Source: a bacterium (GTDB lineage: Bacteria; Auribacterota; JABMQX01). From it: a DNA stretch of 64,000 nucleotides. The DNA lies in NCBI GenBank assembly GCA_030691545.1, contig JAUYEE010000330.1, positions 459 through 64,458 of the forward strand, written 5' to 3'. Positions 3,128 through 60,364 of this stretch are shown here, piece after piece; within the stretch, counting starts at the first letter, position 1, and each line of letters begins with the position of its first letter. Made by a program: the position numbers and the translations under genes. A model generated the notes under the pieces. It saw only the letters and a list, made by a program, of their open reading frames with translations. It did not search any database and was not told where the DNA came from.

Positions 3128-3865
3128 GTGCCAAAACAGGCAGTGTTTTTCATCTTGGTCGGTTACGCAATCTCTCTTACCCTCGCCTGTGGGTTCGTTC
3201 TTCTTCCGTCTAGTTCCGCGCAAACCTACACTGAAACTCCCACCGGGGTCGAGCACGCGGGCCTTTCCCCATCCGACGAGGACCAAGCCCGCGATGCAAC
3301 GCGCCTTTTCCAGGAGATGCTCAATCGGCTCAATTCCTCGCAAACACCGTCGGAGCCTCCACAGGAGGAGGTCCTTCCGCAAAATGCGCTTGCGAGATTC
3401 GAGGCCTACCTCCGGGAGAATCGGAGCGAGTGGTACGTCGTCCTGACGCAACTCGCCCTGGCGGCGGCCTTAGGGCTGATCCTGGCGCTCGTGTACCGCG
3501 TCTCCTACACCGGGAAAAAGAAGAAATACAGTCGCTCCATGATGCAGAGCCAGGTGCTCCTTGCCATCGGCGGGGCGTTCATCTGGGTTCTCGTGGCCAA
3601 CTTCCTTGTTCGGGCGTTCGGCCTGGCGGGAATGGTCGGCCTCATCCGGTACAGGACGCCCGTTCGCGACCCTAAGGACAACGTGATGGTTTTCCTGTCC
3701 ATGGGGGTTGGCATGGCCTGCGGCCTCGTCCAGGTCACAGCAGCGCTAGTGGCGACGGGCTTCCTTTCCCTCGTCCTCATGGCCATGCACGAATTCGGTT
3801 TCGGGAAGAAGAAAAAGGCAGCGGAATCAAAATCTTCGTCCGAGGAACCGGACGCCGAGGACTGA
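3128..3865 (+). CDS. Polytopic membrane protein, DUF4956-like (frequent VTC partner)
   Basis: Several hydrophobic helices and K/E-rich termini. Adjacency to a VTC-domain gene is the usual pairing for DUF4956. Confidence 0.4.
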   Translation: MPKQAVFFILVGYAISLTLACGFVLLPSSSAQTYTETPTGVEHAGLSPSDEDQARDATRLFQEMLNRLNSSQTPSEPPQEEVLPQNALARFEAYLRENRSEWYVVLTQLALAAALGLILALVYRVSYTGKKKKYSRSMMQSQVLLAIGGAFIWVLVANFLVRAFGLAGMVGLIRYRTPVRDPKDNVMVFLSMGVGMACGLVQVTAALVATGFLSLVLMAMHEFGFGKKKKAAESKSSSEEPDAED

Positions 3866-3968
3866 CCGGCGCTCGTCTTGCCATCTGCCGCGCATTGACT
3901 TGTCCCTTCCATTCTGCTATACGGTGACGCGACAATCGGTCGTTACCCAGTCGCCACTGGGGGGTGAA

Positions 3969-6647
3969 ATGGCGCCGTTTTCTCAAAGACTACTTTTCTT
4001 GAGTGCCTTCGTCTCTTCATTCATCGGACGGAGCTTACCTGGGCATGGACTTTCAGCCAACCCCGCTCGAGTGCCGGATGGCCCAGCGAACGAGGACCGA
4101 TTCGTATTCGTGGTGGAGTCCGATTGTGGGCGCGGCGGCGCTTATAACCTCGCCCTGAATCCTGATGCGTCCCGCCTGTATGTCGTCGGCGAATCCTCCT
4201 GGCTCGACATTCTCGACATCACAGACCCGTCCGCGATCCGCTCCGTCAATCAATCGCATGTGGACGGGCTGCCGTACGGTTCGGATGGCGAGTTCGGCAT
4301 TGCTTACGACCCCTTCTTCCAGAGGCTCGTCGCAGGAGGAGGCGCCGGGAGGAAGGTGCACCTGTTCGATGTCAGGGGCGACCAGTTGCGAGTCCTCGAC
4401 GCGGCTTATCCGCCGGAGCGACAGTTTCCGGCGGCGAATTTCCCTCCACTGATCGCGTCGCCTCCGATATTCGTGAAGGGAGGAAATGCCGTTGCCGTCG
4501 CGATGCTGACAGGCGGTTCAGCGGACGACCCGTCATCCGGGCAAAAGGTTTACTTCGGCGAGGGAATCACGCTTCTCTCCAGTGACCCGTTCACAGGAAA
4601 GATGTCCGTGGTTGATGAGGGAATCGGCGGCCTCTCGGCAGTCTATGGCCACGCTTACGACGCGAGGCGGGACATGTTGTGGTGCGGGGGAGGCGACGGC
4701 GCCGAGGCGGTGCTCGACTTCTCTAGCAGCGCCCTCTCCGAATGCCGCTGTTGGGCCGGCCCCCTCGACGAGGAAGGACCCCGCATTTCCCCCGATGTGC
4801 TCACTCGCGACGGGAGATGGCTTATCGAGCGAATCACGTCGCGCTTCCCGGCGAACGACTGGTCACTGCGCATCCGGCAGATCGAAGCCGCGAACGGCGA
4901 GTACTCGCTCTGGAACGCCGACATGCCAACGGACGGCGCCTCCCCTCGCCTTCTCGGCTCAGCCCCGGCTAACTGGAACAGCCACGCCGCTCCTTCGAGG
5001 CCCCTGTTGCCCTGTGTCCTCACCCACGACGAAACACGCCTCCTGACCGCGGAATCCGGGGGAAACGAGCTTCTCATCCTCGATATCACCGATAAAACCG
5101 CCTCTCCGCAATTCCTCTTTTCCGCAAACGTTGGAGACGGAGAGGAAATCCAATCCATCAAGGGTCACCGCAACCGGTTCTACGTTTCCCTCAAATCCGG
5201 CAGGATTCGCGTTTACCAATGGGGGTATGTCCAAAAACCCGATCCGCCGTCGGGTCTTTCCGCCGTCGCGTCCCCCACTGACCAGAGCATATTCCTCTCC
5301 TGGACGGCGCCATTGACGGGTGTTCCGCCGGTAGGCTACAACGTCTATCGCCGCACAGCCGAGATCTCCTTCAAGAAAGTCGCCTCCGTATCCGAAACCC
5401 AATGGACGGACGCGGCGACTGCGGAAGGCGAAACGTATTTCTATGCAGTACGCTCCTGCGCCCCGCAATACGGCCCCGTCGAAAGCGACGATTCCCCGGA
5501 AGTTCAGGCCACCACTGCCAGTGGCATTCCTCCGGTGAAGGTCCTCGGCCTCGCTGCCGCGCCGACTCTCGCGGGAATCATCCTGACCTGGCAACGCAAT
5601 CCGGAAGACGACGTCACGGGCTATCTCGTCTATCGCCGGACAGAAGGTGCCCTATTCGAGAAAATTACCCCCTCGCCCGTCGCCGAGGCGCGCTTCCTCG
5701 ATTTGGACCTGCTCGGCGGTGCGGACTACTCCTACTACGTCACGGCCGCGGATAGTCTATCCGAAGGACTGCCATCGGATGCGGTCACTGCCACGCCTGC
5801 CGACCGGACCGACAACCTCCTCCTCAACCCGGGAGCCGAGGAGCAGTGCACGCGAGGATGGGTCAATGCCAGCTCGATTCCTGCCCCCGACCCCGCGAAC
5901 CGTTATTCCTTTCACAACGACCTCTTCATCGGCGTCACGGACGCCTGTAGCGCCGAAGGGCAATGGGCTTTCTGGGCCGACCAGACGAAGGGAAGATATG
6001 ACCGCGAGACGGACACCTTCGTGGCCGAGACCTACCTCCTTGCCGCGTACCAGGATGTGGACGTAACCCCGTTTTCCAGTTTGATTGAGTCATCCGAAAG
6101 GAACATCGTCGCTGACTGGGGAGGACAAGTTATCCGAACCCCATCTGAACAATCCGCCATCCCCTGCATCGCCATCGAGTTCCTCAACACGCAGCAGACC
6201 GTCCTCGCAAGGCAGGAGCTTTCTTCCGAGAAAATGGGCGAATGGGATAACCTCTCATCCAGCGACCCCGTCCCCGCAGGCACAGTGAGCCTTCGCTTTT
6301 GGATGTTTGCCCAGGAAGTGAAAACCGCCCCCGCCAACGCCGCCTGGGACTCCCTGTCTCTGACTCTCCGCGAGGAACCGCCCCCTCAGCCGCCCGAGGT
6401 CACATTGCTTGCACAGCCGACAGGCATCCTCGTCGTCCTTTCCGTCACAAGTCCTTCGGCAAGCTATCAGATCGAATACACGGACAACCTCCCCGCCGGG
6501 GCGAACGACTGGAAACCCTGCGGCCCGGTCCTCATCGGCAACGGCAGCACCATTCAATGGCTCGACTCCCCTGACGAACCCGCCAATCCGACCAATCCAC
6601 CCGCTCACTCCGTCGAGCGCCGCTTCTACCGCGTCCGCCAGCAGTAA
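3969..6647 (+). CDS. Large secreted protein with beta-propeller-like repeats, fibronectin-III-like repeats and a C-terminal ...RFYRV domain
   Basis: Signal peptide MAPFSQRLLFLSAFVSSFIG. LVIVD-like repeats (LYVVGESSWLDILDITDP). Repeated PxSGLSAVAS...LSWTAP FN3-like units. Ends ERRFYRVRQQ. Confidence 0.5.
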   Translation: MAPFSQRLLFLSAFVSSFIGRSLPGHGLSANPARVPDGPANEDRFVFVVESDCGRGGAYNLALNPDASRLYVVGESSWLDILDITDPSAIRSVNQSHVDGLPYGSDGEFGIAYDPFFQRLVAGGGAGRKVHLFDVRGDQLRVLDAAYPPERQFPAANFPPLIASPPIFVKGGNAVAVAMLTGGSADDPSSGQKVYFGEGITLLSSDPFTGKMSVVDEGIGGLSAVYGHAYDARRDMLWCGGGDGAEAVLDFSSSALSECRCWAGPLDEEGPRISPDVLTRDGRWLIERITSRFPANDWSLRIRQIEAANGEYSLWNADMPTDGASPRLLGSAPANWNSHAAPSRPLLPCVLTHDETRLLTAESGGNELLILDITDKTASPQFLFSANVGDGEEIQSIKGHRNRFYVSLKSGRIRVYQWGYVQKPDPPSGLSAVASPTDQSIFLSWTAPLTGVPPVGYNVYRRTAEISFKKVASVSETQWTDAATAEGETYFYAVRSCAPQYGPVESDDSPEVQATTASGIPPVKVLGLAAAPTLAGIILTWQRNPEDDVTGYLVYRRTEGALFEKITPSPVAEARFLDLDLLGGADYSYYVTAADSLSEGLPSDAVTATPADRTDNLLLNPGAEEQCTRGWVNASSIPAPDPANRYSFHNDLFIGVTDACSAEGQWAFWADQTKGRYDRETDTFVAETYLLAAYQDVDVTPFSSLIESSERNIVADWGGQVIRTPSEQSAIPCIAIEFLNTQQTVLARQELSSEKMGEWDNLSSSDPVPAGTVSLRFWMFAQEVKTAPANAAWDSLSLTLREEPPPQPPEVTLLAQPTGILVVLSVTSPSASYQIEYTDNLPAGANDWKPCGPVLIGNGSTIQWLDSPDEPANPTNPPAHSVERRFYRVRQQ

Positions 6648-6874
6648 GGCTGCGCCGCCCGAGGCACTTTTGGACACTCATCTGAAATGGGCTTCCACCC
6701 TGTTTTGCACCCGGTGGTGCGCATGCCGAAGCCGACTTGAATTGGGCAAAACGCACTGCCGTCCGGGCGGAGACAAGGTCCTCGATCGCCGAAAGGGCGA
6801 AATAGCCTGACGCGAGCCTGGAACGAAGGCGGTCGTTTGTGCCGCCAAAATGCAGCCACACCCGTTCAGGGGGC

Positions 6875-6903
6875 TTGACGCGCCTGCAAGAGAGGGCTAT
6901 ATT
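6875..6903 (+). promoter_or_regulatory. Sigma70-like promoter driving the FMN riboswitch (-35 TTGACG, 17 nt spacer, -10 TATATT)
   Basis: TTGACG at 6875-6880, 17-nt spacer, TATATT at 6898-6903. The riboswitch P1 helix starts about 7 nt downstream. Confidence 0.45.
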
Positions 6904-6907
6904 AGTA

Positions 6908-7033
6908 GCAGATCTTCGGGGCTGGGTGAAATTCCCGGCCGGCGGTCAAGCCCGCGAGTCCTGCCGAGAGGCGGGACTGATCCGGTGAGATTCCGGAGCC
7001 GACAGTGAAAGTCTGGATGGAAGAAGATCTACA
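6908..7033 (+). ncRNA. FMN riboswitch (RFN element) aptamer
   Basis: Conserved RFN blocks are present: CTTCGGGGCTGGGTGAAATTCCCGGCCGGCGGT, AGCCCGCGAG, GATCCGGTGAGATTCCGGAGCCGACAGTGAAAGTCTGGATGGAAGAAG. P1 pairs AGATCTTC (6910-6917) with GAAGATCT (7023-7030). It lies directly upstream of ribBA and ribH. Confidence 0.85.
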
Positions 7034-7053
7034 AAAATGAGTTTGCCATTGTG

Positions 7054-7090
7054 AAAGCCCCGAAGGTCACCCTTTTGGGGCTTTTGGTTT
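7054..7090 (+). terminator. Intrinsic terminator of the riboswitch expression platform
   Basis: AAAGCCCC...GGGGCTTT stem followed by TGGTTT. Position between aptamer and ribBA implies transcription-attenuation control. Confidence 0.6.
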
Positions 7091-7169
7091 AGCACACGGA
7101 TTCACAAGTACTACCACGTACGGGAAACCGAGCGCCTGTTTTTGACAGGATCAACAGGATGGACAGGAT

Positions 7170-8375
7170 TTGAAGACAAAGACGGAAGTACTTAGTGTTG
7201 AGGAAGTTGTCGAGGATTTTAAGGCTGGGAAGATCGTGATCGTCGTGGATGATGAGGATCGCGAGAATGAGGGCGATTTCATCATGGCGGCGGAGAAGGT
7301 GACTCCCCAGGCCATCAATTTCATGGCGAAGCACGGCAGAGGGCTGATCTGTCTTCCGACGACGAAAGAGCGATTGGAGGAGTTGGATTTGCCGTTGATG
7401 GTGGATCGCGTAACGGCTCTCCACGGGACGGCGTTCACGGTGACAATTGACGCGAAGGAAGGGACCACAACGGGGATTTCGGCAGCCGATCGCGCCAAAA
7501 CGATCAAGCGGTTTACGGAGCCGGACGCGAAGCCGGAGGATTTCGCTCGGCCGGGGCACGTGAACCCGATCCGGGCGATGGAGGGGGGCGTGCTGCGTCG
7601 GTCGGGGCACACGGAGGCGGCTGTGGATTTGGCGAAACTGGCGGGGCTATTTCCGGCGGGAGTCTTGTGCGAGATCATGGACGAGGATGGAACGATGGCT
7701 CGGATGCCGGCGCTGATGAAGCTCGCGGAGGAGCACGGTCTAAGAATCGTGACGACAGCGGCTTTGATTGATTATCGGCGAAAGAGAGAGAAGCTGGTCA
7801 GGAAAGTCACCGAGGCGGATTTGCCGACGGCGTACGGTCGCTTCCGGCTGCACCTGTATGAGAGCCTACTGGATGGCGACGAGTACCTGGCGCTCGTCAT
7901 GGGGGAGATTTCGGGCGAGGAGAGCATCTTAGTCAGGCCGCATTGTCAGTGCTTGACGGGAGATGTGTTCCGCTCGGAGAGGTGCGATTGCGGGCCGCAG
8001 CTCGAGAAAGCAATGAAGATGATTGCGGGCGAGGGGAAGGGAGTAATTCTCTACATTCCGCATGAGGGGAGAGGGATCGGCTTGGTGAACAAAATCAGGG
8101 CGTACACGTTGCAGGATAAAGGGTTGGACACGGTCGAGGCGAATCTCGAGTTGGGATTCAAGCCGGATATGCGAGAGTACGGCGTGGGCGCCCAGGTGCT
8201 GTACGACTTAGGGTTGAGAAAGATTCGGCTGTTGACGAACAATCCGAGCAAGTATGTGGGGCTACAAGGATATGGTTTGGAGATTGTGGAGCGAGTGCCG
8301 ATTACGGTTCGCCCAACGAAGTACAATGAGAGATACTTGCAGGTGAAAAAAGAGAAGATGGGGCACGTGCTCTGA
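7170..8375 (+). CDS. ribBA: Bifunctional 3,4-dihydroxy-2-butanone-4-phosphate synthase / GTP cyclohydrolase II
   Basis: RibB N-half ([22 protein letters not shown]...) and RibA C-half ([21 protein letters not shown]...[18 protein letters not shown]). TTG start at 7170. Confidence 0.95.
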
Positions 8376-11306: not shown

Positions 11307-11516
11307 TTGGCGGTCTATTCTGGCGTGGGTGATAGTGCGAGTGCTTTGATCAAACTGAAAGTCCCCAGGCTGCACAAGGGGATGATTCTAAAGCTCGATC
11401 TCGGGACGCAGTCGAAATGTATTCTGGCCGCGCTAGGCGGGGAAGTAGCGGTGCCCTGTAACCTGCAAACCGCTATAGCAGGGCTGAATTCCCGATTGAG
11501 GTTCTTAGCTACGGCC

Positions 11517-11660
11517 GGGGAACCAGGAGGGAAAGCGTTGAGTTCCGGGTCTCATGCAATGGAGTGTTGTGAACCCGGTCAGGACCGGAAGGTAGCAGCC
11601 GTAAGCAATTCCTCCATGTGCCGTGAGGCAACCTGGAAGGAGCAGACTCTCCTGGGAAAC
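11517..11660 (+). ncRNA. ffs: Signal recognition particle RNA (4.5S/ffs), domain IV core; 5' extent uncertain
   Basis: CCCGGUCAGGACCGGAAGGUAGCAGCC matches the universal SRP RNA helix-8 motif (GGUCAGGUCCGGAAGGAAGCAGCC). A closing helix pairs CCAGGAGGG with CUCUCCUGG. Position immediately upstream of dnaX-ybaB-recR is the classical ffs location. Confidence 0.7.
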
Positions 11661-11926
11661 CGTCCGTAAGCGGAGCCGATTGAGGGTGCGCGGCCAATCC
11701 TATAATTGGGCGAATTAGGCGGTCGATGTGACAGTAGATATGGGCGCGGCTGTATTAGCGTTGCTTGCCCTAATGGGCGCCGTTTGTGTCGCCGGCATCT
11801 TGCCCCCCTTCTGAGGGCGAGACGCCCTCAGGACAGCCGCCGAGACGGCGGCGTTACACCGGGAGTTCTGCCTCGCAAATACAGCTACACCAGCAGATAT
11901 GAAGAAGTGTTCGGTTCGATGAGGAG

Positions 11927-12220
11927 ATGGAGAAAATGACCGTGGCAGAGAGGATCCTTCAGCAGGTCACCAGGTTGCCGGAGCCTTTGCAGGCTGAAGT
12001 GCTCGACTTCGTGGAATATCTTCAGTCGAAAGTGGGGCCGGTCAGGGCGTCCGGCGAGGAGGAAGCCTGGCAGGCTATGTCTCTTTCTCAGGCGACGCGG
12101 GGAATGGAGTCGGAGCCGTCCCCTTACTCCGCGGAGGATCTCAAGGGACACGTCGAGCGTGCGGCCCCGATTTTTTCAAGACAGACCTCAGGGAACGCGG
12201 ACAGCGCGGAGAGAGAATAG
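11927..12220 (+). CDS. Small DUF2281-like (addiction-module-antitoxin-like) protein, no toxin partner
   Basis: MTVAERILQQVTRLPEPLQAEVLDFVEYLQSK resembles the CHP02574/DUF2281 family. Its stop is 4 nt before dnaX. Confidence 0.35.
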   Translation: MEKMTVAERILQQVTRLPEPLQAEVLDFVEYLQSKVGPVRASGEEEAWQAMSLSQATRGMESEPSPYSAEDLKGHVERAAPIFSRQTSGNADSAERE

Positions 12221-12223
12221 AGA

Positions 12224-14207: not shown

Positions 14208-14363
14208 AAAGGAATATTCTTGACAGGATGAACAGGATAGACAGGATTTTTAGGCATCGCCCAGCCGTTTCTGTGGCGATTGTACTGTGATCCTGTCTAA
14301 GAATATGTTCTGGATTTCGAGACCTCCTGTGTTCGGCGTGCTGACGAGAATAGGCTGTGAAAC

Positions 14364-16284: not shown

Positions 16285-17181
16285 ATGGGCGAAGAAAAGG
16301 ATAAGAAAAGTTTCTTAGACCCGCAGATTCTGATGACGCTGTCCGGGATGGAGCTGAAGGCCCGGATGGTGGTCGAGGGGGTGGTGTCGGGTCTGCACAA
16401 AAGCCCCTACCAGGGATTCAGCGTGGAGTTTGCGGAGCACCGCGAGTACACCCAGGGCGACGAAATTAAGCACATTGACTGGCAGGTGTACGCGAAGTCG
16501 GATAGGCTCTACGTGAAGCGGTATGAGGAAGAGACGAACCTGCGGTGTTACATCTTGTTGGATTCGAGCGGGTCTATGGGGTATCGCTCGGACGGGATGT
16601 CGAAGTTGGAATACGGGGCGCACTTAGCGGCCGCGCTGACGTACTTGATGCTGAGGCAGCAGGATTCGGTCGGATTGGTGACGTTCGATGAGGCGATTCG
16701 GCGGTACATTCCCCCGAGGAACAGCCCCCGGCACCTCAAGATTATCGTCGAGGAACTCGAGGGGCTGAAGCCGGGGAACAAGACGATGGTCTCCAACATC
16801 TTCCACGACCTCGCAGAGCGAGTGCATCGGCGGGGGCTGGTCATCGTGATTTCGGACTTGTTTGATGATCCGGATGAGATTCTGGTGAGTCTCCAGCACT
16901 TCCGTCACAAGAAGCACGAAGTGATTGTGTTTCATCTGCTGGACCCGTCCGAACTGCTGTTTCCTTTCGAGCGGATGACGCTCTTTCGGGGGCTGGAGGA
17001 CGGACGGCGGGTTCTGACCGAGCCGGCGACTCTGCGGAAAAGGTACTTACAGCAGTTATATGCGTTCGTTGACAAGCTGAAGAAAGGATGCCGGGATAAC
17101 CGGATAGACTATTTTCAGATAAGCACGGATGAGAATTTCGGGCGCGCGCTGACGCGGTATCTCGGCACGAGGCGAAAGTGA
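16285..17181 (+). CDS. DUF58 domain protein (MoxR-associated vWA-like)
   Basis: GFSVEFAEHREYTQGDEIKHIDWQVYAKSDRLYVKRYEEET...ILLDSSGSMGY is the DUF58 signature. Confidence 0.8.
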   Translation: MGEEKDKKSFLDPQILMTLSGMELKARMVVEGVVSGLHKSPYQGFSVEFAEHREYTQGDEIKHIDWQVYAKSDRLYVKRYEEETNLRCYILLDSSGSMGYRSDGMSKLEYGAHLAAALTYLMLRQQDSVGLVTFDEAIRRYIPPRNSPRHLKIIVEELEGLKPGNKTMVSNIFHDLAERVHRRGLVIVISDLFDDPDEILVSLQHFRHKKHEVIVFHLLDPSELLFPFERMTLFRGLEDGRRVLTEPATLRKRYLQQLYAFVDKLKKGCRDNRIDYFQISTDENFGRALTRYLGTRRK

Positions 17182-17365
17182 TTCGGTTTTGGGGTGTGGG
17201 GGTTGGGGGTTCGGGATTCGGGTGTTGGGCGGTACAGTCCCGTTGAGGTAACGCCGCCGTCTCGGCGGCACTCTCGAGGGCGTCTCGCCCTCGGAATCGG
17301 GGGCAAGATGCCCCCGAGACAGCCGGCAAGATGCCGGCGGTACAGCAGGAGATGGTAAAACCGCG

Positions 17366-19681
17366 ATGTTTGGTTTGAGCTTTTTCAATCCCGCCCTCTT
17401 ATGGGGGCTTGGAGCCGCCGCAATTCCAATCCTGATTCACCTGTATAACCGCCGGCGCTTCCGGACGGTGGCGTGGGCGGCGATGGAGTTCCTTGTCTCG
17501 TCGAGCAAGCTGACCGCAAGACGGCTGAAGCTCCTCCAACTGCTGCTTCTCCTGACGAGGATGGGAATTGTCTCGCTCCTCGTGGTGGGGGTGGCGAGGC
17601 CGTTCCTGACGGGCGGATTCCTCGGTGGGCCCCTCGGGAAATCAAAAACCTCGGCGGTCATCATTCTCGACAACTCTTATAGTATGGGACTGAGGGAAGG
17701 GAACGAGACGGTGTTCGATGCGGCGAAAAAGGCGGCAGGGGAAGTGGTCTCGAGTTTTCGGCACGGCGATTCCCTGACGCTCATTTTGATGGGCGAGCGG
17801 CCGCGCGTGGTGACGGAAGGGAATCCATCCCCGGAACGGGTGAAAAAGCTGATTGAGACCTCCGAGCTATCGGACGAAAAAACCGATATTCTCGCCTCCC
17901 TCCGCAAGGGCCTGGAGGTTCTCGACGGCGAGAAGAACACACAGAAGGAGTTGTTCTTAGTCACGGACTGCCAGCAGAACGGCTGGTCCGTCGCGAACAT
18001 TGCGGGCTGGGACAGTGTTGACAAATTGATGCAGGATGCGGAGGTCAAACATAGAATCTACGTGCTGGACGTATCCGCCCGCCCCGGCGAAAACGCGATG
18101 CTCAGTTCCGTGAGGTTACCGGCGTATCCGTGCGGGGTCGGGAAGCGGTACATCGTCGAAGCGACCGCCGCGACGACCGCGGAAAAGCCAGCGGGGCGGC
18201 CGGTCTTTACGCTTTGTCTTGACAAGGAAGGGAACGAGGTGGCGAGAACCGAGGGGAGCGAGTTCAAGGACGGAACCTCGACGGGGCGTCTAATTTTCTC
18301 GGTGGGTTCGCCCGGGTTCCATTGGGGAAAGATTTCCATTCAACCCGACCGGCTGGAGGCGGACAACACACGTTATTTCGTCGTGAAGGCAAAGGACTCG
18401 GTGCCGGTTCTGTGTGTTGACGGGGTAGGCTCGCTGGACGAATTTGAAAGCGGAATCGCGTACATGGTGTATGCGCTGGCTCCGGAAAAAGGTCTGGAAG
18501 GAGTGGACGACATCGCGAACGTGCTGGAACCGAAAGTCGTTAACGTGGAGCAGCTCTGGGAGGAGGAGCTGGCTCGGTATGAGGTCATCGTGCTGTCGAG
18601 CGTAGGAGTCCTGTCCGTGAGGATGCACGACGCGCTGACAGATTTTGTGACACAGGGGGGAGCGCTGATGATTTTTCTGGGGGACAAAGTTGATCCGCTG
18701 GAATATTCGGAGCGATATGCCTCCTCAGCCCCGCCCAAGGCGGGGTTCTTGCCCTGTGCGTTGGGCTCCGCGAAAGGAACCGTTCCGGGAGCAGATGAGA
18801 AAGAAGCTGGCGGCGAAACCGTGCGCATCTCGGAGGTTGACTTTGGACATCCGGCGATGGCAGCGTTTCGGGACGGCGCGGGCGGCGACGTGACGACGGC
18901 TAAGTTCTACCGATACTTTCCCACGAGTCCAGACACGATGAACCCGGACATTCAGGTTCTGGCGAGGTTCAGCGATGGTTCGCCTTACATTGTTGAGAGA
19001 AAGCTCGGGCGAGGCAAAACGATTCTGTTCACGTCAAGTTGCGATGTGAAGTGGTCCAACATGTCGCTGAAGCCGGTCTTTCTGCCGCTGGTGCATCGGC
19101 TCGCGTACTACCTGGTGAGTGGGGCGGACGAACGATACAACCTGACGGTCGGGGAGAGAATGGCCGTGCCATTGGATGCGGAAGAAGCGTCGTCCCCGGC
19201 GGAGATTGTTACCCCTCCCGGAGGCGTTTTCAAAGTCATGGCCAGCATGCCACCGCTGGGGTCAGGGGTCAGGGATCAGGGATCAGGGGAAGAGGGTGGG
19301 CTGCAAGCGGAACCCTTCGTCTCGTTCGAGGAAACGAGTGTCTCCGGCATTTATACTTTGAACACCGCGGCCGTTCCTGGAGGCGGCGGAACAAGCGCGC
19401 CCGGACAGCCCGGCCTGGGTGAGCCTGCCCGATCAGGGAGAGTCCGCTATTTCGCCCTCAATGTGGATACCGCCGAGAGCGATGTTACCGCTCTGGCGCA
19501 GGACGGCATCCGGCGGCTCATCCGCTCGGGGGAGATGAAGTACGTGCAAACCGAAACCGGAACAATGGAGCGCATCGAGGAAATGCGCCACGGGAAGGAA
19601 ATCTGGAGATACTTCCTCGTGGGAGTCCTCTGTTTTCTGGTCGTAGAGTCGCTGTTGGCGCGGAAGATTGATAAAGGGTGA
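17366..19681 (+). CDS. BatA-like aerotolerance-regulator N-domain / vWA membrane protein
   Basis: N-terminus LLWGLGAAAIPILIHLYNRRR, vWA MIDAS (AVIILDNSYSMG), C-terminal TM. Confidence 0.7.
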   Translation: MFGLSFFNPALLWGLGAAAIPILIHLYNRRRFRTVAWAAMEFLVSSSKLTARRLKLLQLLLLLTRMGIVSLLVVGVARPFLTGGFLGGPLGKSKTSAVIILDNSYSMGLREGNETVFDAAKKAAGEVVSSFRHGDSLTLILMGERPRVVTEGNPSPERVKKLIETSELSDEKTDILASLRKGLEVLDGEKNTQKELFLVTDCQQNGWSVANIAGWDSVDKLMQDAEVKHRIYVLDVSARPGENAMLSSVRLPAYPCGVGKRYIVEATAATTAEKPAGRPVFTLCLDKEGNEVARTEGSEFKDGTSTGRLIFSVGSPGFHWGKISIQPDRLEADNTRYFVVKAKDSVPVLCVDGVGSLDEFESGIAYMVYALAPEKGLEGVDDIANVLEPKVVNVEQLWEEELARYEVIVLSSVGVLSVRMHDALTDFVTQGGALMIFLGDKVDPLEYSERYASSAPPKAGFLPCALGSAKGTVPGADEKEAGGETVRISEVDFGHPAMAAFRDGAGGDVTTAKFYRYFPTSPDTMNPDIQVLARFSDGSPYIVERKLGRGKTILFTSSCDVKWSNMSLKPVFLPLVHRLAYYLVSGADERYNLTVGERMAVPLDAEEASSPAEIVTPPGGVFKVMASMPPLGSGVRDQGSGEEGGLQAEPFVSFEETSVSGIYTLNTAAVPGGGGTSAPGQPGLGEPARSGRVRYFALNVDTAESDVTALAQDGIRRLIRSGEMKYVQTETGTMERIEEMRHGKEIWRYFLVGVLCFLVVESLLARKIDKG

Positions 19682-19799
19682 TTTCGGATTGGGAATCTGC
19701 TTGGTGTCTTCGTGCCTTGGTGGTTAGCTGCTTGGGGTCCTTACCACGAAGGACACGAAGGGCACGAAGAGAGAAAAGCGCGAAGGGCGCAGACGGCAG

Positions 19800-22289
19800 A
19801 TGTTCTGGAACGGTACAGGAGCGTTTTTAGGAATCATGCACAGGATGCCCATGCTGCTTTCGGTCGAAGAGGGTGAATCGCGGTTTGCCCTGGGAACGCC
19901 GCTTGGGATGGCGACGGTCGCGGTGGTCATGGGAGTGGCGGCGGTGATGATTCTGTTCCTGTACGGGCGAGACCTGAGAACAAAAAGAGCCGGGAGGAAA
20001 GCGATTCTGTGGGGACTGCGACTCCTGGGACTGGCGTGCCTGGCGATTGTGCTTTTAGAGCCGACCCTGGCGTGGAAGCGGACTCTGCGCGAGGAGGTGA
20101 GTGTGGCAGTGTTCGTGGATGCGTCGGCGAGCATGGGCTTGTCCGATAAGTTGAAGGATGCCGAGGCGCGATTCGCCATCGCGAGGAGACATAACCTCCT
20201 GACGGAGGACCAGTTGCGGGCGGCAGAAGGTGGGAAAGCGAAAGCGGAAGTTCTGACCGAACAGCAGAACAAGGTCATAGACAATCTGAAGCGGATGGAA
20301 ATCGTCTCCGATTTCCTGAAGTGGCAGAATCGCGAGTTCCTGCGTCGCCTGGGGGAAAACGTAAATGTGAAGCTCTCCCGGTTTGGGGCAGGGGTGGAGG
20401 AGGTTTCCGAGGAGGCGCTGGTCGGGAATCCGGGTCTGGGCGACAAGTTAGTGCTGGAGGAAGGCGCCGGAGGGGGGGTAACGGACATTTCGGCGGCGTT
20501 GGGAGAGGTCGAGAAGCTGACGGCGAGCGAGCGGATGGCGGCGGCGGTCCTAATCACAGACGGCGACTGGAACAGCGGAAAGGACCCCGTCGCGGCGGCG
20601 AGCAAGTTGCAGGCGCTGGGGATTCCGGTGTTCTGCGTCGGCGTGGGGAATCCGGATGAAGTGATGGACATCGAGGTGGCGGATATAAAAGCCAAGAAGT
20701 CCGTTTACCTCAAGGACGCGGTAGCCGTGGCGGCGGAGGTGAGATGGAGCGGCTACGGGGACAAGACGGTTTCGGTGATTCTGAGGCAGGGGGAGGACGT
20801 TTTGCAGGAGAAGAAGGTGGAACTGGGGTCGGGGGTCGGGGGTCGGGGATCGGGGTCTCAGACGGTGGGGCTGCAATTCGTCCCGACGAAGGTTGGAGTA
20901 GCTGTCTGCACGGTCGAGATTCAACCAGAAGCCGATGAGCTCCGCAAGGACAACAACCAGAGGACGTTCGAGGTGGAGGTGACGCGAGCGAGGAAGAAGG
21001 TCCTCCTCGTCGAGAAGTTTCCGAGGTGGGAATGGCGATTCCTGAAAAACGCGATTTACCTTGACCCGGATTTTGACCTCACGACGATTCTGTTCAACGG
21101 CGTGGGGCGTCCCTCCGAGGGCGATTTCTATATCACTTCCTTCCCGACGACGAAGAGGGAGCTTTATGAGTTCGAGGTAATTATATTTGGCGACGTGCCG
21201 GCGATGGAATTTACGCCGGAGCAGTTGCAGTTGGTGGCTTCGTACGTGGATGAAAAAGGGGCGCCGTTCATCATGATTTCGGGGGAGGAGTATGCGCCGT
21301 GGAGCTACAAGGGGACAGAGATCGAGAAGCTGCTGCCGGTCATCCTGGACGACAGTCCCCGTGGGAAAACCGGTGTGTATTTCGGTGAGGGCTTCAACAT
21401 AGAGTTGACGGCGGAGGGATGGAACAGCCCCATGATGCTCCTGTCCGACGTGCCCGAGGACAATGACCGGGTGTGGATGAACCTGCCGCCGTTTTACTGG
21501 TGCGCCTCGGTGGAAAGGGCGAAGCCGGGAGCAACGGTTCTGGCGACTCATCCCTTCCTTTCGAACCCCGTGTCGCGGGGGAAGTTGCCGCTCATCGCCA
21601 CGCAGCACTACGGGAACGGCAAGACGATGATTGTGAATATTGATAGTACGTGGCGATGGCGGCTCGAGTATGGGGATATCGTGCATTACCGCTTCTGGGG
21701 GAACGTGTTGCGGTGGATGATCGCCACTCCCCTCGAGGGAAAAGGAAAGTACGTGACGCTCTCCTGCGACAAGGAGACGTATCGGGTCGGCGACACGGCG
21801 ACGATTGATGCGAGGGTCGCAGACAAGGAATATTACCCGTTCAACAAGGGACAGGTCTTTGTGGAGGTCACGGACCCCTTCGGAAAAAACGAGAGGCTGC
21901 CGATGGAAATGACCGACGCGAAAAGAGGAACCTATCAGGCGAAATACCCGATTCGGGCGTCGGGCGTGTACCGAATTCAAAGCGTGGTACCAAGTCTGGG
22001 GGAGGAGGGATTCCAGGCGGCAATCAAGGTCTCCGGCGAGTCGGTGTCCCTCGAGCGGAACAGCTTGCAGATGAACAGGGAAGTCTTGGAGCGGATTGCC
22101 GCGAAAACCGGCGGGAGTTTTCATACGATTGAGACGGCGGCTGCGATCACCGATGAAATCCCTTCCGTGCAACGGGAGTTCAGTGAAGTGAAGCTCAGGA
22201 GTCTGTGGGACAGTTCCTACGCGATTGTTGCTTTTGTGGGCATTATGACCCTGGAGTGGTTTCTGAGAAAGAGGAAAGGGTATGTCTGA
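19800..22289 (+). CDS. vWA-domain membrane protein (BatB-like)
   Basis: TM segments then VSVAVFVDASASMG, a MIDAS-like motif. Large C-terminal domain. Confidence 0.6.
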   Translation: MFWNGTGAFLGIMHRMPMLLSVEEGESRFALGTPLGMATVAVVMGVAAVMILFLYGRDLRTKRAGRKAILWGLRLLGLACLAIVLLEPTLAWKRTLREEVSVAVFVDASASMGLSDKLKDAEARFAIARRHNLLTEDQLRAAEGGKAKAEVLTEQQNKVIDNLKRMEIVSDFLKWQNREFLRRLGENVNVKLSRFGAGVEEVSEEALVGNPGLGDKLVLEEGAGGGVTDISAALGEVEKLTASERMAAAVLITDGDWNSGKDPVAAASKLQALGIPVFCVGVGNPDEVMDIEVADIKAKKSVYLKDAVAVAAEVRWSGYGDKTVSVILRQGEDVLQEKKVELGSGVGGRGSGSQTVGLQFVPTKVGVAVCTVEIQPEADELRKDNNQRTFEVEVTRARKKVLLVEKFPRWEWRFLKNAIYLDPDFDLTTILFNGVGRPSEGDFYITSFPTTKRELYEFEVIIFGDVPAMEFTPEQLQLVASYVDEKGAPFIMISGEEYAPWSYKGTEIEKLLPVILDDSPRGKTGVYFGEGFNIELTAEGWNSPMMLLSDVPEDNDRVWMNLPPFYWCASVERAKPGATVLATHPFLSNPVSRGKLPLIATQHYGNGKTMIVNIDSTWRWRLEYGDIVHYRFWGNVLRWMIATPLEGKGKYVTLSCDKETYRVGDTATIDARVADKEYYPFNKGQVFVEVTDPFGKNERLPMEMTDAKRGTYQAKYPIRASGVYRIQSVVPSLGEEGFQAAIKVSGESVSLERNSLQMNREVLERIAAKTGGSFHTIETAAAITDEIPSVQREFSEVKLRSLWDSSYAIVAFVGIMTLEWFLRKRKGYV

Positions 22290-22375
22290 GAGAAGTAGCG
22301 CAGGCGTCTCGCCTGCATGCTGCAAGCCGGAGGCTTGCGCCACATCATTCTGCGTTACCCCGAAGGAGAACAACC

Positions 22376-25300
22376 ATGGCTAACGGCGCCGAGACATGGG
22401 CACGGCATCTCCCGCGAGACCTTGTCGCGCGGTTCACAGCCGCGAGGAGGCGCGTCCGGAAGGTGATTCTGGTCAAGGGCGGGTCGCTAGTGGTGTTCGC
22501 GGCATGTCTGAGTTTTGGCTTGAGCGTCATTCTCGACAGGCTTTTCTTTCTCCGGTCGCCGTACCGGATGGCGCTTTTCCTGGGGAGCATCGCGGCCATC
22601 AGCCTGTTCCTGGTGAGGTTTCTCTTGGTTCCGTTGTCGCGGAGGCTCTCCGCGAGACGCATCGCGCAGGGCATGGAGGAGAAGCACCCGGAGTTGGGGG
22701 ATATGTTGCTGAGCGCGGTGGAGCTTTCGGAGCAACTGGAGACGGGCGAAACCTACACCTCGAAGCAACTCGTCGGAGCGGTTTCGGAAGAGACGGCGAG
22801 ACGCGCGAGGGGGATTGATTTTCGCTCTATTCTGCCGTTCTCGTCTGTCCGCAGGGCCCTGGTGGGAACGCTGGCGGTTGTGTGTGCCGTGGGAGTGTAC
22901 TGCTACCTCCGCCCGATGGTGGCTGAGAACGTGCTGCGGCGGTTACTTTTCCCGTACTCAGGCCCCCCTCCTCTGACGTTCACTCAGTTGAAGGTGACGC
23001 CGGGGAATGCTCTCGTCCTGACAGGCACAGACGTGGAGATCAAGGCGATAGCAACTGGGAAGGTGCCGAGGAGAGCGTTTCTGTATTTACAGGGAGGAGG
23101 GGGTCAGGGGCCAGGGGTCGGGGGCCAGGGGGAAGGAGGCTGGGATAAGAAGGTGCTCCGAGGCAAAACGAAAGGAGAATTCCAATACCGCCTGAGCGAG
23201 GTGCTTCGTCCGATAAGCTACCGGTTGAAAGCCGGCGATGCCCGGTCGGAAACGTACACTATTTCGGTTACAGAGGCGCCGGTCATCGTGGGGATTGAGG
23301 TGGACTACACCTACCCGGACTACACCGCACGCCCGCCGGAGAGAAGGGCTGGCAGCGGAGATGTAGCTGCGGTCCGGGGGACCAAGGTGAGGATCGCGGC
23401 GAAGGCAAACAAACCCTTGAAGATGGCTCAGGTTCGTTTTGGGGACGAGACGCAAAGCCTCGTCTTCGTTCGGGACGAGACGATTCGGTCGCAGGAGTTC
23501 GAAATCAAGAAGGATGAGTCCTATTCGTTCCATCTCGTGGACACGCATGGTTTCGCGAACACCGAGGCGATAACCTATGGCATCCGGGCGCTCGAGGACA
23601 GGCCCCCCGTTGTCGGGGTTCGCAGTCCAGACAAGTATTCCGATGCGACGCCGGACGCGGCGGTGAACGTGGCGTTCCGGGCCGCGGACGACTTCGGAAT
23701 CGAGAAGGTGTGGTTGGAGTATTCCATCTCCGGCGCGGAGTTGAAGGAGGAGAAGGATAAGGTCGCGGGCGACGAAAAGAAAGGGACGTTGCCGATTGAG
23801 ATTCCCGCTCGCGGGAAAACCGAAGTCGAGGCTGAGTACCCGCTTTCCCTGTCGGAATTGAGGCCGAAGGTCGGGGAGGTCGTCGTGTTCCGTGTGGTAG
23901 CTGAGGACAAGAATGTTCTAAGCGGCCCGGGTCGAGGGGTGTCCTCGGAGCACACCATCCGAATCATCTCGAGCGAGAGTTCCCTTCGCAAGATCGAGCA
24001 AGAGCAACAGGACCTGGAACGGCGACTCCAGCGGCTGATCAACCAGCAGAGGGAGAACAAGAAGATAGTGGACAACCTGACTGCGGCTGTTCGCGGAAAA
24101 GAGTCCCCGGGCGAGGGGGAAAAGAAGTCCCTCGAAGAGGCGAAATCGGTGCAGCGGCAGATCGAAGAAGCCGGCCGGCAATTAGCGAAGGATTTCGCCA
24201 GTACGCTGGAGAAGATGAGACAAAGCCCGATCATCCAGGTGCGCAGCATTATCGAGATGGCGGACATCACGGGGGCCCTGGAAGGCCTTTCAGCCGCAGA
24301 AATGCCCGCGGCGACGAAGAAGGCTTCCGAAGCCGCCGGAAGTGAGGAGGCAACGGGCAGAGAAAACAAGCTGCGTGAGACATCGAGCTTGCAGGACAAG
24401 ATTATCAAGAAGTTAGAGGAGGCGGGGCGGGAGTTCGCGAAACTGCAAGAGGGGCAGCGGCTGTTGAGCCTGGCGGAGACGGCAAGTCGCTTGGCGAAGG
24501 AGCAGTTGGACGCACGCACGCAGACGGCGGCGGCTTTGCCAGACCTCGCGGGGGTCTTCCCGGAGAAGCTGACGGAAGAGCAGAAGAGAAGGCTGAGGCA
24601 GTTAGTGGAGGAAGAGGAGAAGCTGAGGGAGAAGCTGACGGAGTTTGAGGAGAGGCTTCGCACCTTGAAGAAGCAGTTGGAGTACTCCAAGTCGCCGGAC
24701 GCCCAGATGATTGCGCAGGCGCTGAAACACTTTGAGCAGGGGGCGGACGCCTCGAGCATCCCGCAGAACGTGAGGGAGGCGATTGAGTCGTTGCGCGCGA
24801 ACCATCTCCACAAGGGAATCAACAATCAGACGCAGGCTTACGAGTCTCTGATGCGGCTCGCGCAAGAGTTCGAGCAGGCCCAGAGGCTGAGGCTCCAGGG
24901 TGAATTCGCAAACAGCATTCAGGGGCTGGAGCCGCAGGAATCAGAAATAGACAAGTTGATTGAGATTCAGAAAGCCATCATCGGGCAGACGAAAGAACTG
25001 CCGACGGAGAAGATCGAGGGAGGGGAGCTGCAACGGTTTGAAAAGGTGTCCGCCTCGGAGAAGGACTTGCTGAGGAGGACATCGTCCTTCCGCGCGATCT
25101 TAGAGGAGATATTCGAGAACTTAGTGTTGATCGGGATTGACCCGGTTACACCGCTGAAAGGGGCGGAGGATGCGATGGGAAAAGCTTCCGGCAGCCTGGA
25201 GAAGCTGAAAGCGGAGACGGCGTTGTCAGAGGAAGCGGTATCCCTTCAGAACCTCGAGAAGGCTCGGGAGGAACTCGCGAAAGCCCTGGCGAGGATGATG

Positions 25301-25968: not shown

Positions 25969-27108
25969 ATGAACATGGGCGAAACCACAAAGGACGCGAA
26001 GGGCGGGTTTAGGGGTTGGGGGATAGGGTTTGGCGACCCGGAATGCCCAATTCACGGTCCTCTACTCCCGAAACCCGAAACGCCATACCCCAAACCCGAA
26101 ACCCCGACCCCAAACCCCCGACCTGTCGCGGCGGTTGTGACAGCGTTGGCGGTTCTGGTCTGCCTCGCCGTGCAGGCGCCGAACGGATGGGGGGCCTTGT
26201 CCGCCGAGGCGAAGCAGGCGGTCGAGAAGGGACTCGATTATCTGGCGAAAACGCAGGGGTCGGACGGCTCGTGGCCGGACCACTACGGGAAAAGCCCGGC
26301 GGTTGTGGGGCTGGCGGCACTTGCGTTCATGGCTCACGGAGAAATGCCGGGCAGAGGGAAATACAAAGAGACGCTGGAGAGGGCGATTGACTACATCCTA
26401 AAACAGTCGCAGGAAAACGGGTTGATTGCCCGACCGGGAAGTCAGCCGATGTATGACCATGGCTTCGCGACGCTGGCGCTGGCGGAAGCATACGGCATGT
26501 CCAAAAGGAAGGACCTGGAGGTCGCACTTCTGCGAGCCGTGCGGCTGATCGAGCGTGTCCAGAACCTGCGCGGAGGATGGCGCTACCAGCCCCGGCCGGC
26601 AGACGACGACGTCACGGTGACGGGCTGCCAGTTGATGGCTCTGCGCGCCGCAAGGAACGCGGGCGTGAACGTCCAGAGCCTCGTTGTCCGGAGAGGGGTG
26701 GACTACATCAAGTCGTGCGCGTGTGCGGACGGCGGGTTCGCGTATCAGCCGGGAGGGTCGTCGGGGAAGGCAAGGACGGGCATAGGTGTTCTTCTGCTCC
26801 AGTTGCTTGGCGAAAGCGAATCGGCGCTTGTGGGCAAGGGAGCCGAGTATCTTGCCCAGAATCCCCTGCGTCCCGGGGAGACCTATTACTATTACGGGCT
26901 CTATTACTGCACGCAGGCCATGTTCCAGAAGGGGGGGGAATCCTGGCAGTCCTGGCGGAAGGAGGTTCTGGAAACCGTGGTCTCAACTCAAGTCGCGGAC
27001 GGGAGCTGGCCGAAGCAAGGCAGCGAGGGCGGCGATACGTATGCGGTGGCGATGGCGATCCTTGCCCTCGAGGTCGAATGGAAGTTACTCCCGATCTACC
27101 AGCGGTGA
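25969..27108 (+). CDS. Prenyltransferase / squalene-cyclase-like repeat (alpha-alpha toroid) protein
   Basis: Repeated DGSWPD / GGWRYQ / DGGFAYQ / DGSWPKQ motifs typical of the terpene cyclase/mutase repeat family. N-terminal Pro/Thr-rich linker. Confidence 0.65.
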   Translation: MNMGETTKDAKGGFRGWGIGFGDPECPIHGPLLPKPETPYPKPETPTPNPRPVAAVVTALAVLVCLAVQAPNGWGALSAEAKQAVEKGLDYLAKTQGSDGSWPDHYGKSPAVVGLAALAFMAHGEMPGRGKYKETLERAIDYILKQSQENGLIARPGSQPMYDHGFATLALAEAYGMSKRKDLEVALLRAVRLIERVQNLRGGWRYQPRPADDDVTVTGCQLMALRAARNAGVNVQSLVVRRGVDYIKSCACADGGFAYQPGGSSGKARTGIGVLLLQLLGESESALVGKGAEYLAQNPLRPGETYYYYGLYYCTQAMFQKGGESWQSWRKEVLETVVSTQVADGSWPKQGSEGGDTYAVAMAILALEVEWKLLPIYQR

Positions 27109-27199
27109 CACAGCCCGCCCGGCTGAACACGGATGGAACCACGAAGGACACGAAGATTGGAATTTGCGGGCGAGACGCCTGCGGTACTCGAGCACCAAG

Positions 27200-34204: not shown

Positions 34205-34300
34205 TGCCCTGTGATGCTTCGTGTGCTTCGTGCGCTTCGTGGTGAAGGGGGCCGCTTTTCTCATCACGAAGGACGCGAAGGGCACGAAGAGAGAAAGGCA
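34205..34300. repeat. Inverted array of CTTCGTG / CACGAAG 9-mer repeats (type copy)
   Basis: GCTTCGTGTGCTTCGTGCGCTTCGTGG ... CACGAAGGACGCGAAGGGCACGAAGAGAGAAA. Similar arrays occur at 19700-19790, 25925-25995, 27130-27160, 43800-44040, 45130-45190 and 51300-51420. Confidence 0.75.
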
Positions 34301-34308
34301 CAAAGACT

Positions 34309-43739: not shown

Positions 43740-44083
43740 GCTGTCTCCGGGTTGGGATTTTGATATTGCTGTTCTTCAGATGAAAAGCTATTCTCGCCAC
43801 GGCAAATCGCCCTGTGCTTCGACCTTTGTGTCTTTGTGCCTTTGTGGCAACGGTCCGAAGCATCTAACCACGAGGACACGAAGGCACCGAATCCGCTCCA
43901 CGACGATATTGCCGAGGCCAGGCCCAAAAACTGCCCGATGTGGGAAAGTTTTTGCCGAAACGCTACGAAAAACGGCGGGAATTGTAAACAAATTTATTCC
44001 GGCCCGCTTCGTGTGTCTTCGTCTCTTCGTGGTTGGGGCCTCGGGTCCCCACGCACTGGACACGGACACACACGGACACACAC

Positions 44084-45061: not shown

Positions 45062-45261
45062 GGACTGCACGCTACGATATTTGTGATGCAGGCTTCCAGC
45101 CTGCCGCCGCGGGAGGATCCCGCCGGGAAGGCTCTCTCTTGCATCCCTTCGTGTCTTCGTGCCTCTTCGTGTTTCTTCGTGGTCGCCTCTTTTCTCCTCC
45201 CTTTTCCATCCTTGCCATAGAGACACAAGGGCACACAGCAGGGCAGGGTGTTGCGTGCTCC

Positions 45262-56988: not shown

Positions 56989-57007
56989 CATCCACCTGGA
57001 GCAGACA

Positions 57008-60355: not shown

Positions 60356-60364
60356 CAGGCGAGA

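Follow-up and report, generated by a model that had tools for sequence, protein, structure and literature searches.

We call the window a stretch of 64,000 nucleotides (nt) from contig JAUYEE010000330.1 of a bacterium in the Auribacterota, and this work is concerned with three clusters of GC-rich hairpins within it, copies 1, 2 and 3. We believe these composites are probably non-autonomous mobile repeats of the class known as GTAG-tagged repetitive extragenic palindromes (REPs). The observations that lead us there are the anatomy of the composites, their copy number in public data, an insertion polymorphism at copy 2, covariation in four stems, the adjacency of REP-associated tyrosine transposase (RAYT) genes to the same repeats in other genomes, and the terminal inverted repeats (TIRs) and direct duplications that surround copies 1 and 3. 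To our knowledge REPs are among the most abundant non-coding repeats of bacteria, and nearly all mechanistic work on them has been done on Proteobacteria.

The three composites and their module

The original prediction, made from the letters of the window, described three composites of GC-rich triloop hairpins, and these are present where it placed them and are related to one another. A repeat finder matches copy 1 to copy 3 (11807-11857 to 58746-58796, family D5) at 98% over 51 nt, and matches copy 2 (17245-17346) to both in inverted orientation at 87-94% over 52-55 nt. No fourth composite was found in the window by profile search. Perfect hairpins with a stem of at least 6 bp and a 3-nt loop number 41 in the window, 16 of them with an AGA or TCT loop. 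GCCGGCA-TCT-TGCCCCC (11791-11808 in copy 1) is a fusion of the first two hairpins and no hairpin itself. The loops are not all TCT or AGA as had been claimed, since one hairpin of copy 3 has a GGA loop (CGGGACG), and the proposed CG.AGA.CG context applies to some hairpins but not to others, which have CA.AGA.TG.

What the original prediction did not see is that each composite consists of two inverted two-hairpin modules with GTAAC and GTACC tags outermost, and that copies 1 and 3 sit within larger TIR elements with flanking direct repeats. Read on the strand with the TCT loops, GTA(A/C/G)C stands before every first hairpin, and TGTC and a second hairpin follow it. This order of tag, hairpin, TGTC and hairpin is found throughout, so we take the unit to be a module of about 47 nt made up of a GTA(A/C)C tag, a first hairpin with a 7-bp stem, TGTC, and a second hairpin with an 8-9-bp stem, both loops being TCT. 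Module A is GTACC-GCCGGCAtctTGCCGGC-TGTC-TGGGGGGCAtctTGCCCCCCA and module B is GTAAC-GCCGCCGtctCGGCGGC-TGTC-CTGAGGGCGtctCGCCCTCAG. A composite joins one A to one B by their tails, which leaves the tags outermost, and this doublet has a short form of 96 nt and a long form of 138 nt with a conserved 44-nt spacer. The features are as follows.

17248-17343: copy 2, bare 96-nt short-form doublet (sequence, hairpin census)
Copy 2 module B, + strand: tag GTAAC 17248-17252, hairpin 17253-17269, linker ACTCT, hairpin 17275-17293
Copy 2 module A, - strand, after a 3-nt spacer: hairpin 17297-17317, GACA, hairpin 17322-17338, tag GGTAC 17339-17343
58659-58796: copy 3, 138-nt long-form doublet (sequence, single-stranded DNA fold)
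Copy 3 module A, + strand: tag GTACC 58659-58663, hairpin 58664-58680, TGTC, hairpin 58685-58705
58706-58749: conserved 44-nt spacer of copy 3
Copy 3 module B, - strand: hairpin 58750-58770 (GGA loop), GACA, hairpin 58775-58791, tag GTTAC 58792-58796
11791-11857: copy 1, degenerate doublet (sequence, repeat finder, hairpin census)
11791-11808: module-A remnant of copy 1, GCCGGCATCTTGCCCCCC, hairpins fused, tag and spacer gone
Copy 1 module B, - strand, intact: hairpin 11811-11831, GACA, hairpin 11836-11852, tag GTTAC 11853-11857

Copy 2 is a bare doublet. Copy 1 is the form seen in copy 3 with its A hairpins fused through a deletion between shared CATCTTGCC; it also lacks the 44-nt spacer of copy 3, a point on which the first description needs correction.

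These are the traits by which REPs are recognized: GC-rich palindromes that form stem-loops, here with stems of 7-9 bp and 3-nt loops, and an unpaired GTAG-type tag at the foot of the stem, which here lies one base from it. Among 426 perfect hairpins in the loci we fetched the tag is GTAG in 148, GTAA in 109 (a number inflated by the search pattern), GTAC in 33 and GTGG in 12; the first hairpin of a module is GTAR-tagged and the second GTCY-tagged. In the window itself six single elements are tagged GTAG, and the composites GTAA or GTAC.

Each composite is extragenic. Copy 1 stands between the signal recognition particle (SRP) RNA (11428-11693) and a DUF2281 open reading frame (ORF) upstream of dnaX, copy 2 between a DUF58 gene (16285-17181) and a BatA/VWA gene (17366-19681) on the same strand, and copy 3 between convergent genes for a methyltransferase-like protein (56645-58102, +) and a B12-binding radical-SAM protein (58853-60355, -).

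Spread in public genomes and metagenomes

The original prediction named confinement of the copies to the window as the result that would count against it. The copies are not confined, because tagged hairpins occur at no fewer than 120 loci in genomes and at least 120 more in metagenomes. The genome scan used a degenerate tag-plus-hairpin pattern on Genome Taxonomy Database (GTDB) contigs, one genome per species, and among the matches listed most are in Acidobacteriota. Others listed are from Planctomycetota, Verrucomicrobiota, Hydrogenedentota, Cyanobacteria (including two isolates, Oscillatoria PCC 10802 and Egbenema), Nitrospirales, Chloroflexota, Abditibacteriales and some Pseudomonadota. 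The pattern itself did not require pairing, yet 130 of the 138 matches listed are perfect palindromes, where chance would give 1 in 8. In many of them TGTC and CCGAGGGCGtctCGCCCTCGG come next, giving the two-hairpin module again.

The metagenome loci, from the Joint Genome Institute (JGI), were found with an exact 22-mer of module B. In them the short form (93-97 nt) lies at 23 or more other distinct flanks and the long form (137-139 nt), with its spacer conserved, at no fewer than 5. The doublet thus recurs whole at a minimum of 28 other flanks and, as the indel at copy 2 also indicates, the inverted REPs behave as one unit, which is one of the traits of a REPIN. Many phyla in which the ends of the larger TIR elements are not seen also have tagged hairpins, whether single, in dimers or in arrays. 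A full-text search of the literature with six of the hairpin sequences found no paper.

Insertion polymorphism

We recovered contigs of close relatives through their RNase R and BatA proteins, and these show copy 2 present in one and absent from others.

17238-17345, + strand: 108-nt segment, a 12-nt leader AGTCCCGTTGAG plus the doublet, in the window and locus L122, missing in loci L123 and L245
17228-17237 and 17336-17345: 10-nt direct repeat GGCGGTACAG bounding the 108-nt segment

In L122, which has about 96% DNA identity to the window, copy 2 is unchanged. In L123, from the same 90% protein cluster, the site is empty and runs from ...TTGGGCGGTAC straight into GGGAGGAGG. In the outgroup L245 (69% BatA protein identity) it is empty as well and runs from ...TTGGGCGGTAC into TGGAGGAGG. 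The empty site is then TTGGGCGGTAC joined to GGAGGAGG, and the window has 108 extra bases there that end in GGCGGTAC(AG). We conclude that the insertion is the derived state because the site is empty in both L123 and the outgroup. The position after DUF58 (GGGCGGTAC) is a hot spot: the window and L122 have the bare doublet and L123 and L245 have nothing, L134 (880-1150, 93% identity over the end of DUF58) has an insertion of the type that carries copies 1 and 3, and L244 (1015-1144) has a degenerate REP.

The neighbourhood of copy 1 varies too. The 486 bp that hold it (11710-12195) are absent from L123, and L122 has other DNA in their place.

Related units also lie within genes. The six single REPs of the window have the form GTAGC-GCAGGCGtctCGCCTGC-AAATTCC.

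22295-22316: single REP
27166-27187, - strand: single REP
28535-28556: single REP, inside an ORF
28840-28861: single REP
32386-32407, - strand: single REP, inside the RNase R gene
37382-37403: single REP, inside an ORF

The REP at 32386 encodes a 15-residue in-frame insert in RNase R, GEHRNLQARRLRYGA, which is found in the window and its three closest relatives only and is missing from the other 11 homologues aligned. A further in-frame REP of 39 nt, which the window is without, lies in L121 at the place that corresponds to window 33198.

As an observation apart from copy 1 itself, the 3' end of the SRP RNA gene (window 11694-12223) is an insertion hot spot in its own right. The insert in the window is the element that carries copy 1 plus the DUF2281 ORF. 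In L122 (509-1971) another insert, of 1.46 kb, contains a TIR-domain gene and has a duplicated 23 nt of the SRP RNA 3' end at its borders, and L123 has the site without an insert (4683-4688).

RAYT genes beside the repeats

The original prediction suggested that the hairpins might be targets of a REP-associated transposase and that RAYT genes should be sought. Such genes do adjoin these modules in other genomes. The homologues, found by a motif filter and tblastn, are HUH/Y1 proteins of about 200 residues with about 50% mutual identity. One lies within 100 nt of the pattern in 4 of the 120 genome loci listed (L005, L014, L097, L118), and one adjoins module B, again within 100 nt, in 3 of the 120 metagenome loci listed (L143, L161, L171); those of L118, L143 and L171 were identified by tblastn. 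The proteins of L005, L014, L097 and L161 score 81.8-88.4 bits against NCBIfam NF047646 (REP_Tyr_transpos, 'REP-associated tyrosine transposase'; cut-off 80). These four also match Pfam Y1_Tnp, and the best solved relative is 4ER8, the TnpA-REP of E. coli, to which the alignment extends over the HUH and catalytic Tyr regions. Searched for homologues, the L161 protein yields a family of more than 1000 proteins, many of them named RayT by JGI and none of them assigned to the source genome of the window.

In L014 and L161 the repeats around the gene have the build of those in the window. On L014, a contig of a Pirellulales metagenome-assembled genome (MAG), four-hairpin doublets of the same build stand on both sides of the RAYT gene, in the order GTACC-hairpin-TGTC-hairpin-3 nt-hairpin-TACA-hairpin-GTTAC. 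In L161 a doublet and a module B precede the RAYT gene and three inverted modules follow it. Within the source genome of the window a cognate RAYT is unproven, the adjacency being known from other genomes.

L161 is curious for another reason. The RAYT and its flanking REP modules lie in frame within a 1392-residue ORF (3587-7765, -) like a type IIG restriction-modification protein or N6-methyltransferase, so a single open reading frame spans the REPs and the transposase.

Four local hairpins

It is natural to ask whether a doublet of inverted modules folds as a unit or as separate hairpins. As single-stranded DNA copy 2 gives four local hairpins (-41.7 kcal/mol, z -6.7); as RNA, at minimum energy, it folds into a single long imperfect hairpin (-69.9 kcal/mol, z -6.0). 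Covariation across 22 doublets from different sites favours the four local hairpins. In that structure 96.8% of cells are paired and 12 pairs have changed on both sides, and the covariation score is 0.256 against 0.102 for shuffled sets; none of 500 shuffles scored as high, and the signal collapses when the partners are slid. The long hairpin between the arms shows no covariation over the same set (0.086 against 0.094 shuffled, 437 of 500 shuffles as high). We therefore reject the long hairpin of a REPIN for these composites, since the arms are unlike, they do not covary, and the single-stranded DNA fold is four local hairpins. Mismatches in the stems (46 G.T and 33 A.C) have no strand bias, so DNA and RNA are not distinguished by them.

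The elements that carry copies 1 and 3

Alignment of the flanks reveals that the long-form doublet is the core of a larger repeat with TIRs and direct repeats particular to each site, which has the character of a miniature inverted-repeat transposable element (MITE). The long-form alignment includes the window copy with L180, L225, L181, L190, L145 and L187. Its consensus ends are GGGTGTGGCTACATTTCAGTGG... and ...CCACTTATCTGTAGCCACACCC, and the TIR consensus at both ends is GGGTGTGGCT(AC/GT)ATTT. Copy 1 is in a sister subfamily with GTGTGGCTGTATTT ends and a short-type core, also present in L125, L130, L166, L185 and L233. The relation between copies 1 and 3 was established by eye and by profile search, and the MAFFT alignment was poor. 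The profile built from the long-form copies matches 58609-58850 with an E-value of 1.3e-73, a figure that is circular because the copy 3 element is itself in the profile.

58611-58850: MITE-like element of about 240 bp with copy 3, imperfect TIRs CGCGGCTACAGATGAGTGG... and ...CCACTGAAACGTAGCCACACG
58598-58610, + strand: left 13-nt direct repeat CACTATCGCTCGG, read as a target-site duplication
58851-58863, + strand: right 13-nt direct repeat CACTATCGCTCGG
11742-11891: 150-bp internally deleted MITE of the sister subfamily with copy 1, ends GGGCGCGGCTGTATT... and ...AAATACAGCTACACC
11733-11741 and 11892-11900: flanks of the copy 1 element, AGTAGATAT and AGCAGATAT, 7 of 8 flanking bases identical

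Each of the 13 distinct bona fide copies has a flanking sequence of its own, and in every one at least 7 of the 8 bases agree between the two sides, a level that about 4% of offset controls reach. A loose TIR regular expression gave many false pairs, and the count is restricted to copies that the profile or visual inspection confirmed. The duplication is 8 bp in the other copies as opposed to the 13-nt repeat at copy 3. The elements are 150-300 bp long with TIRs of about 20 bp, encode no protein and occupy many sites. Given the TIRs and the 8-bp duplications, copies 1 and 3 must have come to their sites as MITEs. Such a combination is typical of MITEs that a DDE-type transposase moves, and the element was presumably moved by an enzyme of that class. 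We know of no HUH/Y1 enzyme, as in IS200/IS605, that makes such duplications.

We sought a parent insertion sequence (IS) with the same ends. Across the fetched loci, about 1.7 Mb in all, no transposase ORF was enclosed by two such ends at a distance of 1-3 kb from each other; the sample is small, which makes this a weak negative. One candidate pair, in L125, was rejected as it encloses an ordinary 638-residue ORF and a truncated MITE.

There may be a third relic in the window, one without a REP core, at 6650-6863. Its right-end-like AAATGCAGCCACACCC (6848-6863) lies just upstream of a flavin mononucleotide (FMN) riboswitch, and no clear left end was found for it.

Weighing the explanations

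There are real objections to the mobile REP explanation and they should be set out together. Neither the window nor about 70 kb of the close relatives' contigs contains a RAYT by tblastn. Two of the three copies arrived as MITEs and not as free doublets. The GTAA and GTAC tags of the composites differ from the canonical GTAG. Covariation in a palindrome shows selection for a hairpin and cannot tell DNA from RNA. Finally, a 10-nt direct repeat bounds the indel at copy 2, and for that reason gain or loss mediated by microhomology could explain it instead of RAYT action.

The second of these objections can be pushed further. One could argue that the composite is simply the interior of a MITE moved by a DDE enzyme, that it resembles REPs and lies near RAYT genes only by coincidence, and that bare doublets are fragments of the MITE. 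The doublet does lie between inverted repeats with 8-bp duplications in copies 1 and 3 and at 11 or more other loci, and a MITE-type insertion occupies the site of copy 2 in L134. We nevertheless find this very improbable. Copy 2 has no inverted repeats and its 108-nt indel ends exactly at the tag of the doublet; many short-form copies meet unrelated flanks right at their tags; modules and doublets stand beside RAYT genes without MITE ends; singles, dimers and arrays are found in phyla where those ends are not seen; and the fetched loci yielded no parent IS. A different argument is that the clusters are functional RNA elements, that is 3'-end stabilizers, attenuators or terminators of the SRP RNA, the DUF58-BatA operon and the radical-SAM gene, kept by selection and repeated because a structure is reused and not because it transposes. 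Their position outside coding sequence, after or between genes, suits this idea, as does the very stable RNA fold of copy 2, and REPs are said to act this way in enterobacteria (background in PMC3733652). This explanation strikes us as unlikely, although less so than the previous one. Inspection found no T run behind any stem of the three copies and no terminator-like site was called at copies 2 and 3, the two regions scanned, so we reject the intrinsic (Rho-independent) terminator, a role the original prediction had considered. No composite reaches an Rfam gathering threshold (best 17-24 bits against thresholds of 40-268), the sub-threshold matches being miRNA-like hairpins; in the window only the SRP RNA and the FMN riboswitch pass. 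Copy 2 and the copy 1 segment are missing from close relatives that retain the same genes, both orientations occur within a doublet, related units lie in frame inside genes, and the stem mismatches lack a strand bias. A secondary effect on RNA is compatible with mobile repeats, and neighbouring transcripts may be affected.

The remaining argument, that chance or GC-rich, low-complexity sequence produced the similarity, has in its favour only the composition of the window (58-60% G+C, rich in short repeats), and we give it practically no credence. The tag-plus-hairpin pattern GTAVCGCMGSCRTCTYGSCKGC matches the window 10 times and 100 shuffles not at all, and hairpins with a 7-bp stem and an AGA or TCT loop, with at most one mismatch, number 21 in the 64 kb as opposed to 3.2 +/- 2.0 in dinucleotide shuffles. 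The three copies share the 51-55-nt matches at 87-98% described above, and near-identical composites are present in independent assemblies at other flanks. We reject chance on the shuffle controls and these near-identical doublets.

How the composites may have moved

We return to the composites as mobile REPs. By analogy with E. coli TnpA-REP and IS200/IS605, we infer that the substrate would be single-stranded DNA, in which every palindrome would form a hairpin. The hairpin with its tag would be recognized by a RAYT from another part of the genome, which would then cut and rejoin the strand; the doublet would thereby be excised or copied, and its insertion would leave no target duplication. 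Copy 2 would be a bare doublet of this route. In copies 1 and 3 the doublets would have become the core of a TIR-bounded MITE and spread by the other route, presumably DDE, with 8-bp duplications.

A bolder reading joins two claims: that one REP/RAYT system, whose tagged TCT-loop hairpins hardly differ, has spread across at least 8 bacterial phyla, with RAYT and repeats moving horizontally, and that its doublet was captured as a MITE core that serves two transposition chemistries, HUH/Y1 on single-stranded DNA hairpins and DDE on inverted repeats, in the same element of about 240 bp. We offer this joint reading only tentatively and would not be surprised to see it fail. Proteobacterial REPs are known as vertically inherited and lineage-specific.

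If the mobile REP explanation is right, poorly studied soil and sediment lineages have an active RAYT-linked REP system, and strains at about 96% DNA identity differ in its insertions. REP units also enter genes in frame, as in RNase R, and a REP doublet can travel in a MITE. Recognizing the family would explain many spurious 'hypothetical proteins' and strain indels in the Planctomycetes-Verrucomicrobia-Chlamydiae (PVC) group, Acidobacteriota and related MAGs, and the motif to mask is GTAR-C, a 7-bp stem and a TCY loop.

Other repeats in the window

The window holds further repeats that we record for their own sake. Other families of tagged hairpin, GTGG-CACGGGC-TTCC(A/C)-GCCCGTG and CATGGGCAAGATGCCCATG, resemble the GTAG-19/20 peptides of O. 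terrae (HGRHARAT; PMC3733652). Intergenic short-period repeats have the units TTGACAGGATnnACAGGAT, CACGAAGGACACGAAGGGCACGAAG and the complement GTGTCTTCGTGCC; these motifs are also in the MITE-bearing metagenome loci L146 and L243, which suggests related organisms. G-rich tracts of the (GGGGTC)n or GGGTT type and their complements stand at gene boundaries, including directly upstream of copy 2, and are kept in relatives even at the empty site of copy 2. A 300-nt direct repeat in three copies (80% and 63% identity) lies within or near the ORFs 60176-61510 and 62019-62906 and probably represents repeated protein domains.

2068-2091, 2095-2113, 29230-29254, 19831-19854: other tagged hairpins
7139-7178, 14217-14256, 51412-51451; 19740-19794, 34260-34305; 19704-19736, 44013-44045, 45151-45183: short-period repeats
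17192-17218, 19256-19290, 20823-20857, 23091-23131, 26005-26031, 26077-26123, 46697-46750: G-rich tracts
60555-60854, 61064-61363, 62379-62678: 300-nt direct repeat

Comparison with known systems

The closest published relatives are the GTAG REPs of Planctomycetes and Verrucomicrobia, described by Di Nocera, De Gregorio and Rocco (2013, BMC Genomics 14:522, PMC3733652) as head-to-head (HH), tail-to-tail (TT) and head-to-tail (HT) dimers and hetero-dimers with conserved HH spacers and in-frame intragenic copies, commonest in Opitutus terrae; families GTAG-17 to -21 are from that species and Rhodopirellula baltica. The composites share with them short GC-rich stem-loops that have stems of 6-9 bp, loops of 2-3 nt and, on the 5' side, an unpaired tag like GTAG, outward-tagged HH dimers that are often hetero-dimers with spacers of 1-5 or 20-100 bp, and a position between unidirectional or convergent genes with in-frame intragenic copies. 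The HGRHARAT peptides encoded by O. terrae REPs resemble the GTGG-CACGGGC hairpins of the window. Compared by description and not by consensus, the composites differ in their fixed tandem of a GTAR and then a GTCY hairpin. They also differ in having A or C at the fourth tag position, outside the listed variants (GTRG / GTMG), and in that the same sequences recur near-unchanged across many phyla. These hairpin sequences are not present in the supplements of that paper. The class and host range are therefore already known from it; as far as we have checked, the two-hairpin module, the near-identity across phyla and the MITE core are not described there.

In REPINs and their RAYTs (Bertels and Rainey 2011; Nunvar et al. 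2010) an inverted-REP doublet is likewise the repeated unit, and the REPtron of TnpA-REP (4ER8) likewise has RAYT genes flanked by inverted REPs and the HUH and Tyr motifs. The arms here are unlike, however, and form four separate hairpins instead of the single long hairpin that defines a REPIN, so we prefer to call the composites HH hetero-dimers of REP modules or BIME-like clusters of such modules, after the bacterial interspersed mosaic elements (BIMEs). That agrees with the original prediction of a REP/BIME-like structured repeat family, which the tags, the outward-tagged inverted dimers and the spread beyond the window bear out. The RAYTs differ from the gammaproteobacterial groups and resemble subclass 2.7 of Quentin et al. 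(2018, PMC6006769), whose motifs they fit (NHVH, W(Q/S)REYYDH, Y..NNP, about 210 residues) and whose genes are flanked by REPs with GT[AG]G tags.

Like the BIMEs of E. coli, the composites are mosaics of opposed REPs with short conserved linkers (here TGTC/GACA and the 44-nt spacer). They have two forward and then two reverse units where BIMEs strictly alternate, and their sequences are unrelated save for the GTAG-GCCGG start. BIMEs are also bound by integration host factor (IHF) or gyrase; the composites are compared with them by sequence and arrangement. With bacterial MITEs such as Correia, ERIC, RUP and Nezha, copies 1 and 3 share their size, TIRs, 8-bp target duplications, lack of any protein and many sites. 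They differ from these in their core, a RAYT-type REP doublet that is also found free and beside RAYT genes.

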